A stretch of 63,730 nucleotides of DNA, the filler included, from a candidate division NPL-UPA2 bacterium Unc8 (GTDB lineage: Bacteria; NPL-UPA2): the NCBI GenBank assembly GCA_003574845.1. It is 8 parts of 7 records of this genome, joined end to end, with 100 filler letters (N's around TTAATTAATTAA, not from the genome) between each part and the next. Parts side by side here need not be neighbours in the genome. Positions count along the whole stretch, not along the records: positions 55,589 to 58,929 come from NDHY01000005.1; 7 more parts are not named here. One strand, written 5' to 3'. Shown here piece by piece: positions 15,427-59,029 of the stretch (its first letter is position 1; each line of letters begins with the position of its first letter). Made by a program: the position numbers and the translations under genes. Under the pieces are notes generated by a model, which saw nothing but the letters and a program-made list of their open reading frames with translations, made no database searches and was not told the origin of the DNA.

Positions 15427-15526
15427 NNNNNNNNNNNNNNNNNNNNNNNNNNNNNNNNNNNNNNNNNNNNTTAATTAATTAANNNNNNNNNNNNNNNNNN
15501 NNNNNNNNNNNNNNNNNNNNNNNNNN
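15427..15526. other. Artificial contig linker
   Basis: N44-TTAATTAATTAA-N44. Confidence 0.98.
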
Positions 15527-24748: not shown

Positions 24749-24848
24749 NNNNNNNNNNNNNNNNNNNNNNNNNNNNNNNNNNNNNNNNNNNNTTAATTAA
24801 TTAANNNNNNNNNNNNNNNNNNNNNNNNNNNNNNNNNNNNNNNNNNNN
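24749..24848. other. Artificial contig linker
   Basis: N44-TTAATTAATTAA-N44. Confidence 0.98.
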
Positions 24849-41164: not shown

Positions 41165-41264
41165 NNNNNNNNNNNNNNNNNNNNNNNNNNNNNNNNNNNN
41201 NNNNNNNNTTAATTAATTAANNNNNNNNNNNNNNNNNNNNNNNNNNNNNNNNNNNNNNNNNNNN
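41165..41264. other. Artificial contig linker
   Basis: N44-TTAATTAATTAA-N44. Confidence 0.98.
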
Positions 41265-48398: not shown

Positions 48399-48498
48399 NN
48401 NNNNNNNNNNNNNNNNNNNNNNNNNNNNNNNNNNNNNNNNNNTTAATTAATTAANNNNNNNNNNNNNNNNNNNNNNNNNNNNNNNNNNNNNNNNNNNN
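48399..48498. other. Artificial contig linker
   Basis: N44-TTAATTAATTAA-N44. Confidence 0.98.
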
Positions 48499-50968: not shown

Positions 50969-52362
50969 GGTAATATAAAATAAAGTGTGTAAATTCAGGT
51001 TTGAAAAGGCTTGAGATAAGATAAAAAAGGGTGTACCTTTTCTCCCAGAAAGAAGGGTTGGGCAATAATGCTCGCCCAAAGGAGAAAGGAGGTACACCCA
51101 ATGGAAATAGTGCAGAGTAGGCAACTAAGGCCTGAGGAAATATTAAAGGAATGGTGGGGAGAAATCAAGGAAAATCGTGAGGAGGATTTCTGGGTCAACA
51201 CCAGGACATATATGAAGCAGGCACTTAAGAGGTTGATGGAATCAACGATGAGAGGGGAAGTGGAAGCTTACACTCATTCTCGGTGGCATGAGAGAAATGA
51301 GAACAAGATAGACTACCGTAATGGGTTCCGATACCGACGTTTTCTCACTCATGAAGGACCTATTGAAGATTTAAAGGTGCCCCGATTAAGGAAGGGAAAA
51401 TTCCAGACCAGGGTATTCAAGAACTACCAGGCGCGGCAGAAGGCAGTAGATCAGGCTATCAGAGATGTGTTTATCTGCGGGGTAAGCACCAGAAGAGTTG
51501 GAGAAGCCTTAAGTGCTCTTCTGGATGCTCCAGTAAGTGCTGGTACAGTATCTAATGTCACCAAGGCATTGGATAAGGAGGTTAAGAAGTTTCACCGGCA
51601 GAAATTAACTGATGAGTACCAATATCTAATTCTGGATGGGATACATCTGAAGATAAAAGGCGTTCTTAAAGGGAAGAAGAAAGTAATTTTAGTAGCTTAT
51701 GGGATAACGGTGATGGGCCAACGCAGACTAATAGGATTCCGGGTAGTAGGGGTAGAATCTGAGGTCAAGTGGGAACAGTTTCTGACGGATCTCTACAACA
51801 GGGGATTAGATGGTAAAGAGCTCAAATTAATCACCACCGATGGCTGTAAAGGGTTACATAAAGCCTTAGAGACAGTATATCCAGAAGTTCCTCGTCAGGC
51901 CTGCTGGGTGCACAAGTTAAGGAACGTATCTAACTATCTACCGAAGAAGTATCAGAAGGAGTGTACCAAAGAAGCAGGCAAGATTTATCTGGCAGATAAT
52001 AAGAAAGAAGCCGTGAGAATTTACAAATCCTGGGCGAAGAAGTGGATAGAGATAAAGCCAGAGGCGGTAAGATGCATAGAGAGAGAATTAGATGAACTGT
52101 TAGCTTTCCTGGATTGTCCTAAAGAGCATAGAGTTAAGATAAGGACAACGAATGTAGTAGAGAGGTCTTTCCGAGAGGTAAGGCGACGGGTAAGAACCAT
52201 GAATTGTTTCACTAACCAGGCCAGTTGTGAGAGGATAATCTACTGTATCTTTAATCATCTGAATAATCACTGGGGAGCTCGGCTCCTAAAAGATTTCAAT
52301 CAGTTTAAGATTAATGGAGAAAGGTGCACTTTATGAATTTACACACTTTCCTTGACGTTACC
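50969..52362 (+). mobile_element. IS256-family insertion sequence
   Basis: 29-bp terminal IRs (50969-50997 and 52334-52362; 24/29 match) enclosing the transposase; no TSD. Confidence 0.9.
51101..52336 (+). CDS. IS256-family (Mutator-type DDE) transposase
   Basis: YRNG.R.R, VPRLR, GVSTR, LILDG, ITTDG..GL, Q.CWVH, RTTNVVER. AGGAGGT RBS before ATG 51101. Confidence 0.95.
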   Translation: MEIVQSRQLRPEEILKEWWGEIKENREEDFWVNTRTYMKQALKRLMESTMRGEVEAYTHSRWHERNENKIDYRNGFRYRRFLTHEGPIEDLKVPRLRKGKFQTRVFKNYQARQKAVDQAIRDVFICGVSTRRVGEALSALLDAPVSAGTVSNVTKALDKEVKKFHRQKLTDEYQYLILDGIHLKIKGVLKGKKKVILVAYGITVMGQRRLIGFRVVGVESEVKWEQFLTDLYNRGLDGKELKLITTDGCKGLHKALETVYPEVPRQACWVHKLRNVSNYLPKKYQKECTKEAGKIYLADNKKEAVRIYKSWAKKWIEIKPEAVRCIERELDELLAFLDCPKEHRVKIRTTNVVERSFREVRRRVRTMNCFTNQASCERIIYCIFNHLNNHWGARLLKDFNQFKINGERCTL

Positions 52363-52471: not shown

Positions 52472-52571
52472 NNNNNNNNNNNNNNNNNNNNNNNNNNNNN
52501 NNNNNNNNNNNNNNNTTAATTAATTAANNNNNNNNNNNNNNNNNNNNNNNNNNNNNNNNNNNNNNNNNNNN
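52472..52571. other. Artificial contig linker
   Basis: N44-TTAATTAATTAA-N44. Confidence 0.98.
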
Positions 52572-55488: not shown

Positions 55489-55588
55489 NNNNNNNNNNNN
55501 NNNNNNNNNNNNNNNNNNNNNNNNNNNNNNNNTTAATTAATTAANNNNNNNNNNNNNNNNNNNNNNNNNNNNNNNNNNNNNNNNNNNN
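55489..55588. other. Artificial contig linker
   Basis: N44-TTAATTAATTAA-N44. Confidence 0.98.
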
Positions 55589-55810
55589 GGAGGGAATTAA
55601 ATTTAGAATTTGCCGAGAAAACGATTGAGTTTCAAGTCATATTTGGAGATGAGTGGAAGGCGAGAATCAATAGGATATTCGGGGTTTAATATGATGGGAG
55701 GGCTTATCCCCGCTTAAAATAACAACAGCAACCATTTTTTATGTTATCGTTAGAAAAAGCATGATAAATGCCCAGAGTAATTTTATAAATGGTCACTATC
55801 TCTAATTTCT

Positions 55811-55894
55811 CTCGAACACCAAATCAACCAAATGGTTTATAAATTATATGGCTTATCGGGAGAAGAAATAAAAATCGTGGAGGGGAAAAAATGA
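55811..55894 (+). repeat. Direct repeat 1: orphan type IIG R-M-like C-terminal tail
   Basis: Reads LEHQINQMVYKLYGLSGEEIKIVEGKK*; the 29-bp core 55850-55878 is identical to 57510-57538. Confidence 0.8.
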
Positions 55895-56973
55895 GAAAAA
55901 GTGCAGAAATAAAAACAAACCCGGAAGTATTGAAAGAACTTCGTGAAACCTCAGGATATAGTGTTGATGAGATTGCTAAAAAGATTAAAACTACTATAGA
56001 CAAAATAAATGAAACAGAAAAGGGGCTTGCTTTATTTACTTTAACCCAAATAAAAAAATTGGCTGATATTTATCATCGTCCTCTTGCTGCATTTTTCACA
56101 GATACACTTCCTAAAATGCCTATACTGGCTGATTACAGAATAAATCGTGAAAAAAGGTTAGCTCCAGAAGTATATACAGCTCAAAGAAGAGCCCATTACC
56201 TTACTAATAAATTAGTAGAGTTAATGGATAAAAGAAGTCAAATTCCCAATTTTCCAGAGACATTGGAACCTGATAAATTGGCTGATGAATTTAGAAAATA
56301 TTTAAAACCAGGACTATTGAAATCAATAAAACCAGAAGAACTTTTAGCACATTATAAGCAGGTTTTAGAAGAGAAACTTTTAATATCAATTATAGAACTG
56401 CCATTAAAAGCCGATGATGTTAGAGGATTTAGCATCTCTTCTAATATTTCTTGTATTGTTTTAAATGAAGGAGATAAACCCCAAATAAAATTATTTTCTC
56501 TTTTTCACGAAGTATATCACCTAATAAAAAGAACTTCTGGTATATGTTCAATAGAAATTGAGCAAAAAGGTGCAGGCATAGAACCTAACTGTGATTCATT
56601 TGCTGCCGAATTTCTTGTTCCTTTAGATGACTTAAAAGAAGAGCGTAAAAAGTTTTTGCAACTGGACGAAACCTCAATTTCAAAGCTTTCTGAAATTTAT
56701 GGGGTAAGCAAGCAGGTAATTATGCTTAGACTTCTTTGGTCAAAAGACATAACTAAGGAAAGATATAATCAGTTCAAAAAAGAAGGTGTTAAGGAATTTA
56801 AAGAAAAAACGTTCGGCCGTAGAAACTGGAATAAAGTATTTCAGAATCGTGTTGGAAATCTGGCTCTTGGGGAAACAACTAATGCTTATCGTTCAGGAAA
56901 AATTTCCTATTCTGAGGTATTTGACATCTTAAATACGAAAACAAAATATATAGAAAAATTTTTAGAAAGGTAA
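55891..56973 (+). CDS. XRE-HTH + ImmA/IrrE-family metallopeptidase
   Basis: N-terminal HTH, HEVYH zinc motif, CDSFAAEFLVP, YGVSKQVI. Confidence 0.9.
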   Translation: MRKSAEIKTNPEVLKELRETSGYSVDEIAKKIKTTIDKINETEKGLALFTLTQIKKLADIYHRPLAAFFTDTLPKMPILADYRINREKRLAPEVYTAQRRAHYLTNKLVELMDKRSQIPNFPETLEPDKLADEFRKYLKPGLLKSIKPEELLAHYKQVLEEKLLISIIELPLKADDVRGFSISSNISCIVLNEGDKPQIKLFSLFHEVYHLIKRTSGICSIEIEQKGAGIEPNCDSFAAEFLVPLDDLKEERKKFLQLDETSISKLSEIYGVSKQVIMLRLLWSKDITKERYNQFKKEGVKEFKEKTFGRRNWNKVFQNRVGNLALGETTNAYRSGKISYSEVFDILNTKTKYIEKFLER

Positions 56974-56979
56974 TTTATA

Positions 56980-57477
56980 ATGCCCAGAGAATTAGAATTA
57001 TTTCCCAAAACAGTTTATTGTATTGATACCAGCTCCTTAATCAATCTCATACCACCTTGGAAGAAAGATGTCTACCGGAGAGATGTGTTTCCTACAATTT
57101 GGGAAAAATTAGAAAGCATGATAAAAAATGAAGAACTTATCTCTCCTTTAGAAGTTTATGAAGAAATTAAAATTGGGCAAGATGAAATTTATGAATGGTG
57201 CAAGAATAACAGGAAAATGTTCAGAGATGTCGACGAATGTCAAATTCAAAAATTTCAAGATGTTGAAAAACAATATGACAAAAATTATTGGGAAAACGAA
57301 ATTAATAAACCAAGATGGGCTGACCCATGGGTGATAGCTCTTAGCATTTGTGAACGGGCAATCATTGTGGCTGATGAGAAAAATGTAGCAAATAGGATTC
57401 CATCTATATCTGTTGTATTTGAAGTGCGATGTTTGGAGTTATTAGATTTTTTTAAAGAAATAGGAATTAAGTATTAG
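56980..57477 (+). CDS. PIN-like domain protein (DUF4411-like)
   Basis: YCIDTSSLI, FPTIWEKL, EVYEEI, ADPWVIALS, IVADEK, IP. Confidence 0.85.
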   Translation: MPRELELFPKTVYCIDTSSLINLIPPWKKDVYRRDVFPTIWEKLESMIKNEELISPLEVYEEIKIGQDEIYEWCKNNRKMFRDVDECQIQKFQDVEKQYDKNYWENEINKPRWADPWVIALSICERAIIVADEKNVANRIPSISVVFEVRCLELLDFFKEIGIKY

Positions 57478-57479
57478 CC

Positions 57480-57557
57480 AAGATTGACCAGCTGGTTTAC
57501 AAACTTTACGGCTTATCGGGAGAAGAAATAAAAATCGTTGAGGATTTTAAGCGATAA
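57480..57557 (+). repeat. Direct repeat 2: orphan type IIG R-M-like C-terminal tail
   Basis: Reads KIDQLVYKLYGLSGEEIKIVEDFKR*. Confidence 0.8.
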
Positions 57558-57830
57558 TTGGAGGATTAAGGCTTCACCTATAAAAAATAACGGGGTCAGG
57601 TCTCCACACTTCAAATCTTGATAGTTTTATTCTGAATTCTGACTCTGAATTCTGACTCCTGAGAAAAATGGGGTCAGGAGCTTTTTTCAAAAGTAGTAAG
57701 TTGTAAGTAGAAAGAGAGAAAGGCACAGAGGCACAGAGGCACAGAGGCTGATAGCTATTTAGTAGAGAGAGATGAAATTGGAAATTGGTAATTAGTGACT
57801 GGTGTTTTTGTGCTCAGTCTAACAGCCTAA

Positions 57831-58571
57831 CTAACAATTCACGGTATCTACATTGACATGAAGATGATAGAGGCTGATAACTTTGAAGGCTTCGGCTTTC
57901 TCCACGCCCTTTTTTTCGCCCAACTCTTTGGATTTCACATCAAGGTAGGTGCTAAAGACTTGAAATACAGGAGGAGGAAACTGGCTTTTATGCTGACTGA
58001 TTGCCTCAAGTTTCTTCTCAAAATAGGAGGTTATATCTATGAAAGTATTTGGCGTGTTGGTGCAATAGAAGGCAACGAAATTTATCTGATGAGGTCTTCC
58101 TTCTGGTTTGAAATGCGGCATAATGGAGAAAATAACTGCCTCAGCTCCTGCCAATCCTATCTGGATGTGTCCTAAGTGAGCTTCATAAGGCAACCAGGGG
58201 TCAGGAAGAAGTATGCCATCTGGCTTTTCTTTCCGTATTAACTCTATAAAGTCCTGCCTTAATTCTTCGTGAGGCAGGTAATCACCATCGGTATAATCAA
58301 GGAAGATATGTTTTTTAACTCCTAACACTGAAGCGGCTTTCTTGGCTTCCTTTTTCCTTATTGTGGCTAATTCCCCTGGAGTTATATTAGGGTCAAAGGT
58401 TCCGAGACGCCCATCAGTAACGGTAACATAAATTACTTCTTTGCCTTTATCTCTCATTGATGCTATAAAGCCTCCTGCAAAAATTTCTATGTCATCAGGA
58501 TGAGGCTGAATAGCAAGAAATTTACTTCCTTCTTCAATATTCGGTATGGGAAAAAATTCACTGGCTCTCAT
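57831..58571 (-). CDS. PIG-L/LmbE-family deacetylase
   Basis: QPHPDD, TDG..G, R..EA..A...LG, PYEAH, HKSQF. Confidence 0.9.
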   Translation of the reverse strand: MRASEFFPIPNIEEGSKFLAIQPHPDDIEIFAGGFIASMRDKGKEVIYVTVTDGRLGTFDPNITPGELATIRKKEAKKAASVLGVKKHIFLDYTDGDYLPHEELRQDFIELIRKEKPDGILLPDPWLPYEAHLGHIQIGLAGAEAVIFSIMPHFKPEGRPHQINFVAFYCTNTPNTFIDITSYFEKKLEAISQHKSQFPPPVFQVFSTYLDVKSKELGEKKGVEKAEAFKVISLYHLHVNVDTVNC

Positions 58572-58574
58572 TTC

Positions 58575-58856
58575 TTATCCACCTGCAAATGGTGATAGGA
58601 TAGAGATTGTATCGCCATCATGCAACTCAGTTTGGGGGACACCATTAAAGGAGAGTCGCTCATTATTAATCAGGATATTAAATGAGTCAGGTTGTTTGAA
58701 TATAGACTTGAAGAAATTGCGTTTGGGTTTTTTCTCTTTATCAAGCTTTTTAAAGAAGTCTTGCAGGGAAATGCTGTCTCCAGCAAGCTCCTCTTCAATC
58801 CGGTATGTAACTGCCTCACCTAAAAAATAACCCATTACCTGCAATTTAATTATCAT
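58575..58856 (-). CDS. MoaD/ThiS ubiquitin-like sulfur carrier
   Basis: ILINN...L.DGDTISILSPFAGG C-terminus; ATG 58856 overlaps the upstream stop. Confidence 0.85.
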   Translation of the reverse strand: MIIKLQVMGYFLGEAVTYRIEEELAGDSISLQDFFKKLDKEKKPKRNFFKSIFKQPDSFNILINNERLSFNGVPQTELHDGDTISILSPFAGG

Positions 58857-58929
58857 TTGATACACCCCCTTACTATTTTATCCAGTCCAAGATGTTTCAG
58901 TCGTCTATCTGATGGTTTGCCGGTTTCGG
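58853..58929 (-). CDS. Probable aldehyde:ferredoxin oxidoreductase, extreme 3' end (cut by gap)
   Basis: GKPSDRRLKHLGLD resembles the AOR C-terminal G.P....L..LGL motif; directly upstream of a MoaD-like gene. Confidence 0.5.
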
Positions 58930-59029
58930 NNNNNNNNNNNNNNNNNNNNNNNNNNNNNNNNNNNNNNNNNNNNTTAATTAATTAANNNNNNNNNNNNNNN
59001 NNNNNNNNNNNNNNNNNNNNNNNNNNNNN
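58930..59029. other. Artificial contig linker
   Basis: N44-TTAATTAATTAA-N44. Confidence 0.98.

Follow-up and report, generated by a model that had tools for sequence, protein, structure and literature searches.

Orphan 3' tails of a methylase gene flank a toxin-antitoxin-like gene pair in an NPL-UPA2 bacterium and border defence cassettes in other lineages

The subject of this report is a 1.7-kb stretch in the genome of the candidate division NPL-UPA2 bacterium Unc8, in which a pair of toxin-antitoxin (TA)-like genes lies between two short direct repeats that each encode the very end of a restriction-modification (R-M) methylase. The window, that is, the whole stretch of DNA that was analysed (63,730 nucleotides, filler included), holds this locus at positions 55811-57557. 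The piece that contains it (55589-58929) represents the first bases of the 72-kb contig C20 (C20:1-3341), and the locus itself (C20:223-1969) begins 222 nt from the contig end. The genome (GCA_003574845.1), here called G000, is an assembly of 996 kb in 24 contigs that is 94.7% complete; G001 denotes its sister genome and G010 another genome of the same phylum.

The two repeats (55827-55883 and 57487-57543) are 57 nt long and 88% identical, with a spacing of 1660 nt, and share an identical run of 29 nt, hereafter the core, which lies at 55850-55878 in the first copy and at 57510-57538 in the second, on the + strand in both cases. Upstream of the core, the copies differ by five synonymous and two conservative changes, as expected if they diverged inside working genes. 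The first copy is part of a 37-codon open frame closed by TGA (55781-55894, + strand), which reads ...LEHQINQMVYKLYGLSGEEIKIVEGKK up to its stop and whose homology to the methylase C-terminus begins at about 55811; it has no usable start codon upstream, where stops occur in all three frames. This copy also provides the first of the enclosed genes, the cargo, with a GGAGG just upstream and with an overlap of TGA and ATG (ATGA). The second copy is part of a 28-codon frame closed by TAA (57471-57557, + strand), with homology from 57480, 2 nt past the TAG of the last cargo gene, and reads AKIDQLVYKLYGLSGEEIKIVEDFKR up to its stop. On the 248-position profile described below, the two copies correspond to positions 213-238 and 216-239, respectively. 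Neither is joined to a long frame, and upstream of copy 1 there is no other methylase-derived fragment. Pfam gave no match for the two tails or for the 32-aa end of an open reading frame (ORF) at the contig start, these sequences being too short, and a repeat search at the locus found no inverted repeat at the two tails. A further repeat, D3 (55750-55777 versus 56962-56989, 71%), was considered as a remnant of the junction between the cargo genes upstream of copy 1 and was dropped: in 3.3 kb, chance alone would yield an exact match of 10 nt, and the protein frames give no support.

The first cargo gene (55891-56973, + strand) encodes a 360-aa protein with an XRE-type helix-turn-helix (HTH) and a Peptidase_M78 domain of the ImmA/IrrE-like kind (Pfam PF06114, 4e-14; HTH_31, 1.7e-6) and is a putative antitoxin or regulator. 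It also matches the PADLOC model RmrA (1.2e-15), and the RmrA models presumably belong to the system named RosmerTA. The second (56980-57477, + strand) encodes a 165-aa DUF4411 protein (Pfam PF14367, 3.6e-29), a putative PIN-like toxin nuclease. With a GC content of 30-33%, compared with about 41% in the right flank, the cargo is foreign-looking. This anatomy bears out an earlier, sequence-only reading of the DNA, which had described direct repeats with a perfect 29-bp core and mostly synonymous differences in their upstream halves, an AT-rich XRE-ImmA and PIN gene pair between them, a ribosome-binding site (RBS) and an ATGA overlap supplied by copy 1, a copy 2 that starts right at the last cargo stop, and no full gene attached to either copy. 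The accessible part of one survey presents DUF4411 as a PIN-like family and a putative toxin paired with HTH-DUF955 proteins, and the cargo of G000 has exactly the gene pair and order of the HTH-DUF955 (ImmA)/DUF4411 three-component TA-like modules set out there (Matelska et al., 2017; PMC5499597). As far as that text extends, these modules account for the cargo only and say nothing on the tails. An equation of the pair with MANTIS/Gao_RL was ruled out, as the accessible part of its description concerns a different four-gene system (bioRxiv 10.64898/2026.09.23.753747).

Judged by its matches, the tail is the C-terminus of an Eco57I/TaqI_C-type (type IIG-like) methylase, as the sequence-only reading had recognised. 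The 37-aa peptide found 24 plasmid records by tblastn, each through a weak match, and 18 of the 24 matches lie at the ends of genes annotated for Eco57I/TaqI_C/N6 or DNA methylases. Full-length carriers of the tail are 800-1300 aa long, contain Eco57I, N6_Mtase, MmeI_Mtase and TaqI_C domains and match the PADLOC model REase_MTase_IIG (E 2e-251); their gene is usually preceded by one for a PLD + SNF2 helicase of 1050-1120 aa. In G010, two frames of 1144 aa terminate in the tail motif. G000 has the motif in two places only, both of them at this locus, and in its assembly no TaqI_C or N6_Mtase match was found and Eco57I matched below threshold only; the full methylase gene of this genome was either lost or lies past the contig end. 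A phmmer search of the PDB sequences for a solved structure of the tail gave a chance match to a ribosomal protein (E 1.5). Plasmid matches that fell in no annotated gene of this kind gave no clear tail array in isolate plasmids: H17 crosses the record start with a frame of 1037 aa or more and is not an orphan, H12 is a 211-aa truncated frame, and H20 and H5 are ordinary full genes. A separate feature of the methylase C-terminal region in G001 (the long gene at C43, or L028, and the orphans L019, L020 and L034) is that some 25 residues (...SPFIKGGQEG...) are inserted in frame immediately ahead of the DYL...KQAKV segment. This insert is absent from the genes of G010 and looks like a small translated repeat element.

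Tails of this kind, detached from a full gene and here called orphans, are widespread. An alignment of six tails was scanned against one genome per species, which gave at least 605 matching stretches, of which at least 530 were confirmed, and the best 80 of these confirmed matches were analysed as 79 loci from many bacterial phyla and some archaea. Within these loci, tails were detected in all six frames with a tail profile and with a longer profile built from 47 full-length genes (their last ~220 residues), which comprises the 248 positions mentioned above. Altogether, 107 tails were found, none of them (0/107) on the strand opposite the primary match. A full-length frame ending in the tail motif is present in 49 loci; a further 11 are truncated at a contig end, and the remaining 19 have orphans only, two or more of them in five cases. 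One to three orphans lie behind seven of the 43 full-length genes with at least 1 kb of downstream sequence (six of the 35 with at least 5 kb), namely those in L109, L040, L044, L046, L047, L057 and L105. In L109, from Aminicenantes, the orphans follow the full gene at 2.2, 3.2 and 5.4 kb, and in L081, on a 2.9-Mb contig of a planctomycetote (Planctomycetota), nine tails lie within 15 kb. Orphan tails thus recur in tandem, co-oriented, around variable defence and TA cargo and often behind a full gene, and are not the one-off duplication that would have refuted the sequence-only reading by its own terms.

Within the phylum of the window, three of the 13 genomes searched have tail matches. The six matches of the sister genome G001 lie mostly at contig ends. 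They include a methylase frame of at least 654 aa on C43, whose tail is overlapped by a GajA gene; the 2562-nt contig C197, which starts in a tail and continues with a 307-aa gene, a DUF1016/PDC-S02 gene and, at its end, a longer methylase fragment; C138, with the end of a DUF4411 gene, an ortholog of copy 2 and then SIR2 and HerA; and further orphans on C319 and C252. In G010, a full gene is followed by an AAA_13 gene and a decayed orphan, and another orphan precedes a 359-aa gene that appears Fic-like by eye.

Three further observations concern the surroundings of such arrays. The orphan-only arrays L112:300-8562, L101:2502-6044 and L113:3424-6072 adjoin type I R-M operons (HsdS, HsdR, HsdM) instead of a type IIG-like gene. 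In L113, an 85-aa N-terminal remnant of the PLD-SNF2 helicase is kept, together with an HsdM_N fragment that is fused to a tail. TA-like and other genes (nucleotidyltransferase + HepT, NYN, Bro-N) also occur between the helicase and the methylase, at L109:6278-6918, L057:6140-6631 and L046:5415-6233, and no duplicated helicase end is visible at these three inserts.

The break points of the orphans vary on one side only. Their starts are spread over profile positions 142-220, which corresponds to the last 20-100 codons, and all of them run to the natural end of the tail (positions 229-245). Twelve of the 41 orphans with a co-oriented upstream gene start between -11 and +10 nt from its stop, and the others lie 17-636 nt off. 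An ATGA overlap with the following gene is retained in seven of 36 orphans with a co-oriented downstream gene, compared with six of 42 full-length genes; because it is retained at both, the joint between tail and cargo looks inherited from an operon of a methylase gene and an add-on gene. The sequence-only reading had proposed that cargo is translationally coupled to the tail. The overlap at the junctions is often kept, as these counts indicate, and the cargo may be expressed in this way.

In a comparison of 43 full and 28 orphan tails, amino acids proved nearly invariant and third codon positions free to vary; there is thus no DNA core common across loci. Over 60 nt, tails are on average 77% identical within loci (26 pairs) and 72% identical between loci (2900 pairs). 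Members of one array often differ as much as tails from unrelated genomes do. The tails of L081 are 60-87% alike, a divergence that fits units from different donors. Local descent is seen in other arrays. The orphans of L109 resemble the tail of its full gene less the farther away they lie (identities of 0.90, 0.87 and 0.78), and all four tails end in an unusual ...KIIE. In L047, a 307-aa cargo gene is immediately flanked by two copies of a 94-nt segment, 97% identical to each other. In-frame stops or frameshifts interrupt some orphans (L081, L038, L119 and G010:C29).

The genes between and behind the tails belong to families typical of defence islands. AAA_13/PDC-S06 occurs in five loci and DUF1016-YhcG/PDC-S02 in three; other cargo comprises ImmA + DUF4411, DarT + Macro, Hypoth_Ymh, Schlafen-AlbA_2, GajA, SIR2 + HerA, DUF3800/PDC-M04A, PDC-M41A with a radical-SAM gene, DUF433 + DUF5615, UPF0175, a nucleotidyltransferase and Bro-N. 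Several cargo genes have no Pfam or PADLOC match (L047:10132-11052, L019:1528-2448, L081:4994-5647 and L112:8677-9966), and by their position those between tails are candidate defence genes.

The gene pair of G000 itself recurs in this setting. Its ImmA-like and DUF4411 proteins are each 77% identical to their counterparts in L081 (8413-9501 and 9522-9998, respectively), where the pair likewise has a tail before and a tail after it. The order tail-ImmA-DUF4411-tail is found in G000, L081, L119 and L120, and in L121 as far as the contig reaches (ImmA is cut at its start). Relatives of the ImmA gene lie on seven metagenome contigs; in three of these (L119, L120 and L121), tails are present on every side that is reached. 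The neighbours of the cassette differ in every case. The upstream joint, from tail to ATG, is homologous in G000, L081, L119 and L120, and the joint from the DUF4411 stop to the following tail is common to L081, L119 and L120 (from ...DDYL); in G000 it is about 48 nt shorter, which looks like later trimming against the stop codon. Ahead of the cassette, at 1-2226, L120 contains a unit of a tail and a 285-aa gene of unknown family twice in tandem, as unequal exchange between tails would produce. L119 has a related array with a frameshifted upstream tail and a broken DUF4411 gene.

The 29-nt core was compared with the tails of other loci and of the sister genome. Identical runs of at least 29 nt occur in 18 of the 2900 pairs of tails from different loci, and since such runs are rare, chance does not suffice to explain the core. 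For the left half of copy 1, the nearest sequences are G001:C197 and C319; copy 2, flanks included, has its ortholog in G001:C138 (90% over 134 nt). In the core, the two copies of G000 are identical (...GLSGEE...) and differ from both copies of G001 (...GLTQEE... and ...GLTEEE...). As the core is thus not common to the matching copies of G001, it points to a local conversion tract and not to a conserved crossover site; in the simplest reading, it would be a short gene-conversion patch between two tails in the G000 lineage. A patch of this kind is evidence that tails recombine, not that they do so at a fixed crossover site.

Population data, in the form of Logan contigs of four metagenome runs, add a further indication. 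In X1, three unitigs span the locus at depths of 12.6, 13.6 and 9.45+2.57 and break at the core. In X3, which comes from another sample, a 1966-letter contig of depth 51.8 joins position 55850 by way of ten other letters to 57521-57582. This contig has a single, hybrid tail, with a left half like that of copy 1, DLTE in place of GLSG, and the right half and flank of copy 2; its layout is that of an empty site, or of what a deletion between tails would leave. Only this bridging contig was used, and the missing cover of 55925-57492 in X4 and X5 was taken as no evidence that the cassette is absent there. No back-joint of an excised circle was seen in the contigs of the four runs, which drop rare forms, and this result was given no weight either way.

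The explanation to which we incline, with slightly better than even confidence, is that the 1.7-kb stretch of G000 is one unit of a widespread, integrase-free architecture of tail plus cargo that is shaped by general recombination at a conserved gene end, and that its order of first tail, ImmA, DUF4411 and second tail marks a travelled cassette. The methylase family (Eco57I + N6_Mtase + TaqI_C, usually with the PLD-SNF2 helicase gene) ends in a strongly conserved tail of some 25-70 codons, and add-on defence or TA genes are commonly coupled tightly behind the methylase stop. General recombination at this 3' end, probably of the RecA type, would insert, duplicate, delete and exchange units of tail and cargo. 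Foreign DNA consisting of a methylase 3' part, a tail and cargo would pair with the resident gene via the conserved 3' region, and where this happens for the first time, the far joint would be illegitimate or target-duplicating. The resident 3' end would be displaced and become an orphan tail before the older cargo, and as each such event would leave a displaced 3' end behind, one-directional strings of tail-cargo-tail-cargo would result. Cargo that lies between two tails could then enter any tail by homologous exchange alone, could be duplicated, or could pop out. Subsequent deletions may trim the useless 5' part of an orphan back to the neighbouring stop, and its 3' part may persist because the RBS and start of the next gene lie there. 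The succession of events given here is the one we consider probable, and the cargo would be expressed by read-through and coupling. At the tails, conversion, duplication and presence/absence variation are observed, as is the presence of the same tail-flanked cassette in distant phyla.

Several points weigh against this explanation. We infer the mechanism throughout, none of its steps having been seen directly. The tight junctions between stop and tail (the 12 of 41 given above) are not what random illegitimate joints predict; unless deletions trimmed the orphans afterwards, some precise process of unknown nature would be required. Recombinases may act in trans. Since orphans lie behind only seven of 43 full genes, most loci never accrete, and four of the seven ImmA-DUF4411 loci in metagenomes have no tails (L117 and L118, at 75-76% identity; L122 and L123, at 62-64%). 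The joint in X3 was matched at 88% likeness and may come from a related organism, and the upstream part of that contig is unread. On the left side of the locus in G000, the contig ends in a repeat. Furthermore, the 79 loci are the top-scoring ones and nearly all of them are contigs of metagenome-assembled genomes (MAGs), hence a biased sample, in which two loci come from relatives of G000 (L062, which is G010:C5, and L100, which is G001:C197). Finally, the hidden Markov models used are blind to orphans shorter than about 20 codons and favour well-preserved ones.

Tails could also be kept for reasons of expression. The last ~70 nt would carry an RBS, a coupled start and perhaps an internal promoter, and any cargo that works would have to bring its tail along. 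The GGAGG in the ...VEG codons, 8-12 nt before the cargo ATG, fits this idea, as do the retained ATGA overlaps, the fact that all orphans reach the natural end, and an ATT-GAC at the I-D residues (TTGACC, -35-like) in 30/43 and 32/42 full genes. Against it, a consensus scan of 55589-57900 found no promoter-like site on the + strand (three sites, all on the - strand, versus 8.6 expected), the would-be -10 codons vary, and copy 2 and several other orphans (7/43) have no co-oriented gene behind them. An internal promoter formed by the I-D-Q codons (TTGACC) is unsupported by the scan and by the variable -10 codons, and it is a weak rival only. As a whole, the expression reading appears rather improbable to us, and it is compatible with general recombination at the tails, for which it would give the reason of tail persistence.

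It is likewise conceivable, and in our judgement unlikely, that the tails are relics without a role in recombination. Whole sets of R-M genes with their cargo would accumulate at defence hotspots in some other way, the older helicase and methylase genes would be deleted, and a tail would survive only because deletions cannot enter the RBS and start of the cargo. Several observations fit this: L054, L071, L082, L086 and L102 hold longer fragments (frames of 187-358 aa), L113 its helicase N-terminal remnant, the upstream parts of orphans accumulate stops and frameshifts, the stop-to-tail junction after DUF4411 looks progressively shortened between lineages, and G000 has lost its full gene or is assembled without it. 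The fragments that are left speak against decay as the general cause. A tblastn search of the 19 array regions with three full methylases and three helicases gave 106 methylase matches. All but one (105) begin within the final 110 residues, and the exception begins at residue 1022 of 1140. These regions, with about 45 orphans, contain no middle or 5' methylase fragment and a single helicase remnant, the 85-aa one of L113, and random decay of whole genes would not give such a 3'-only pattern. Nor does decay account for the duplication in L047, which is bounded exactly by cargo, for the tandem unit of L120, for the putative conversion tract of G000 or for the tail-flanked cassette in five contexts.

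The sequence-only reading had gone further and taken the tail for a dedicated recombination site of an integron-like capture system. The tail DNA would be a specific site at which a recombinase encoded elsewhere, or the R-M machinery, acts, and cassettes would be cut out as circles and enter the tail of the full gene in the manner of an integron. Its broad outline stands, in that tails recombine and that the cargo around them is variable and co-oriented, and several traits would suit it: the cargo looks promoterless and is tightly packed, many junctions between stop and tail are precise to within a few nucleotides, one cassette recurs in different arrays, and the perfect core amid diverged flanks, together with the hybrid tail of X3, resembles an attL/attR/attB geometry. 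The specific elements of such a system did not appear. Among 115 genes scanned in 15 array loci (42, plus 73 chosen for their closeness to tails from the other 135 genes that are 100 aa or longer), there was no tyrosine or serine recombinase and no transposase, the sole mobile-element match being one to IstB_IS21 in L109, some 8 kb ahead of its first tail. None lies near the locus in G000, whose two integrase-family genes are on C18 and C22 and not on C20, and whose only resolvase match, on C24, is sub-threshold. Both strands of both G000 tails were free of an attC-like fold (z -0.9 to +1.6 versus shuffles), just as they lack an inverted repeat. In addition, synonymous sites are free, the left ends of orphans are spread over some 80 codons, the core is absent from the corresponding G001 copies, and some orphans carry in-frame stops or frameshifts. 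What finds no support is the dedicated, site-specific mechanism, and such a system seems quite doubtful.

That metagenome assemblers fused unrelated pieces at a shared short repeat is scarcely credible: nearly all loci are MAG contigs, and those of G000 and G001 break at or near tails, but the X1 unitigs cross the locus at matching depths, the core is shorter than the 30-letter overlap between neighbouring unitigs, the array of nine tails lies inside a 2.9-Mb contig, and the cassette with both its tails was assembled independently in at least four data sets.

Comparable arrangements are known from other systems. In rhs/cdiA orphan arrays, a large main gene is followed by same-strand modules, each led by a fragment of its conserved region. 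As with the methylase tails, fragment homology permits recombination with the main gene, and no integrase is involved. In rhs/cdiA, however, a variable toxin domain is joined in frame to the fragment and followed by an immunity gene, and recombination swaps the end of the main protein, whereas the methylase tails are an extreme 3' end with its natural stop, their cargo consists of separate, complete ORFs behind that stop, and the main protein is left unchanged. Phase-variable type I hsdS loci contain silent partial copies of hsdS, inverted repeats and usually a dedicated recombinase, and they swap specificity domains. They share with the methylase tails the presence of partial R-M gene copies beside an active gene, which recombine via conserved segments; the tails differ in that they are direct repeats, do not involve the specificity domain and carry unrelated genes. 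With integrons, the arrays have in common co-oriented, tight, mostly promoterless and variable adaptive cassettes with one repeat each beside a fixed gene. Unlike integrons, they have no IntI, attI/attC or folded site that could be found, their repeat is coding and conserved as protein, and their break points are unfixed.

In homology-facilitated illegitimate recombination of transformable bacteria, one homologous anchor admits foreign DNA and the other joint is illegitimate. Applied to the present case, it would give a methylase with the tail and cargo of the donor, followed by an orphan fragment and the cargo of the recipient. On its own, this process does not explain the stop-exact junctions, and for these organisms it would be a proposal by analogy. 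Insertion with long target duplication is described, in the accessible part of the report, as giving direct repeats of >30 bp with one copy at the empty site and no mobile-element genes (Furuta et al., PMC2853133). The 94-nt, 97% repeat of L047 and the gradient of L109 fit this well. In G000, the 57-nt repeats enclose no mobility gene, but the copies are only 88% identical versus the 97% of L047, and the single hybrid tail in X3, matched at 88% likeness, may belong to a relative. In the cases covered by that part of the report, the insert is the R-M system itself and any gene can be the target (PMC2853133); in the tail arrays, add-on defence genes are inserted, always at the 3' end of one methylase family, insertion is iterated into arrays, and many tail pairs are too diverged for fresh duplications. 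The tail arrays are integron-like in outcome and rhs/cdiA-like in mechanism, and their single events resemble Kobayashi-type long target duplications; they are a member of none of these classes. The accessible part of a paper on ANME-1 hotspots describes no tails (PMC13385816), and no published description of orphan methylase-tail arrays was found in a search outside of which most subscription journals lay, so that their absence from the literature is not proven.

A wider proposal, which we advance tentatively and rate a little below even, is that the conserved 3' tail of the methylase gene, itself very widely transferred, serves as a portable homology handle, with which any genome that has the gene, or no more than a tail, may take up, stack, duplicate, drop and pass on ready-to-express defence and TA cassettes, without integrase or transposase, across phyla and between bacteria and archaea. 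If true, the arrays would be a self-organising counterpart of integrons that relies on recombination only, and they would offer a concrete route for the nucleation and growth of defence islands around R-M genes. They would thereby bear on two open questions, namely how defence genes come to cluster into islands and how they spread to distant lineages without obvious mobile-element genes. Orphan tails would also be a testable marker that can be read from sequence alone, with anything between two tails a candidate defence gene. For practical purposes, the tails would account for breaks in metagenome assemblies at such loci, and short "TaqI_C-like" fragments should be annotated as cassette borders and not as random pseudogenes.

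Outside the cassette, the piece begins with a left neighbour at 55589-55689 (+ strand), the contig start, which contains the end of an ORF (55591-55686, with its stop at 55687-55689). This segment has a depth of 700-870, compared with 13-37 for the genome, and a loose end at 55689 in four of four runs, from which its continuation differs; the first 112 nt of contig C20 are single-copy in the assembly. In the sister genome, this segment is again found at the end of a contig (G001:C94), and its ORF end reads ...IFGV before the stop. It may be the end of an abundant shared element. In G001, it is followed by Vsr-like, Dcm-like and 659-aa genes, which were assigned by eye from translations.

On the right, homology to the sister genome stops at about 57580. 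An intergenic region (57558-57830) with short dispersed and tandem repeats follows the second tail at a depth of 350-750, and its part at 57600-57800 is a mosaic of short repeats (e.g., an 8-mer present three times), of which dozens of partial copies occur on most G000 contigs. The window as a whole consists of eight contig pieces, two of which, the first 3341 and the last 4701 bases, come from C20. Pieces that adjoin across a linker are therefore not adjacent in the genome. The linkers consist of TTAATTAATTAA with N's on either side and lie at 15427-15526, 24749-24848, 41165-41264, 48399-48498, 52472-52571, 55489-55588 and 58930-59029. The piece from C15 holds, at 51068-52336, a 422-aa ORF that resembles an IS256-type transposase, by eye only.

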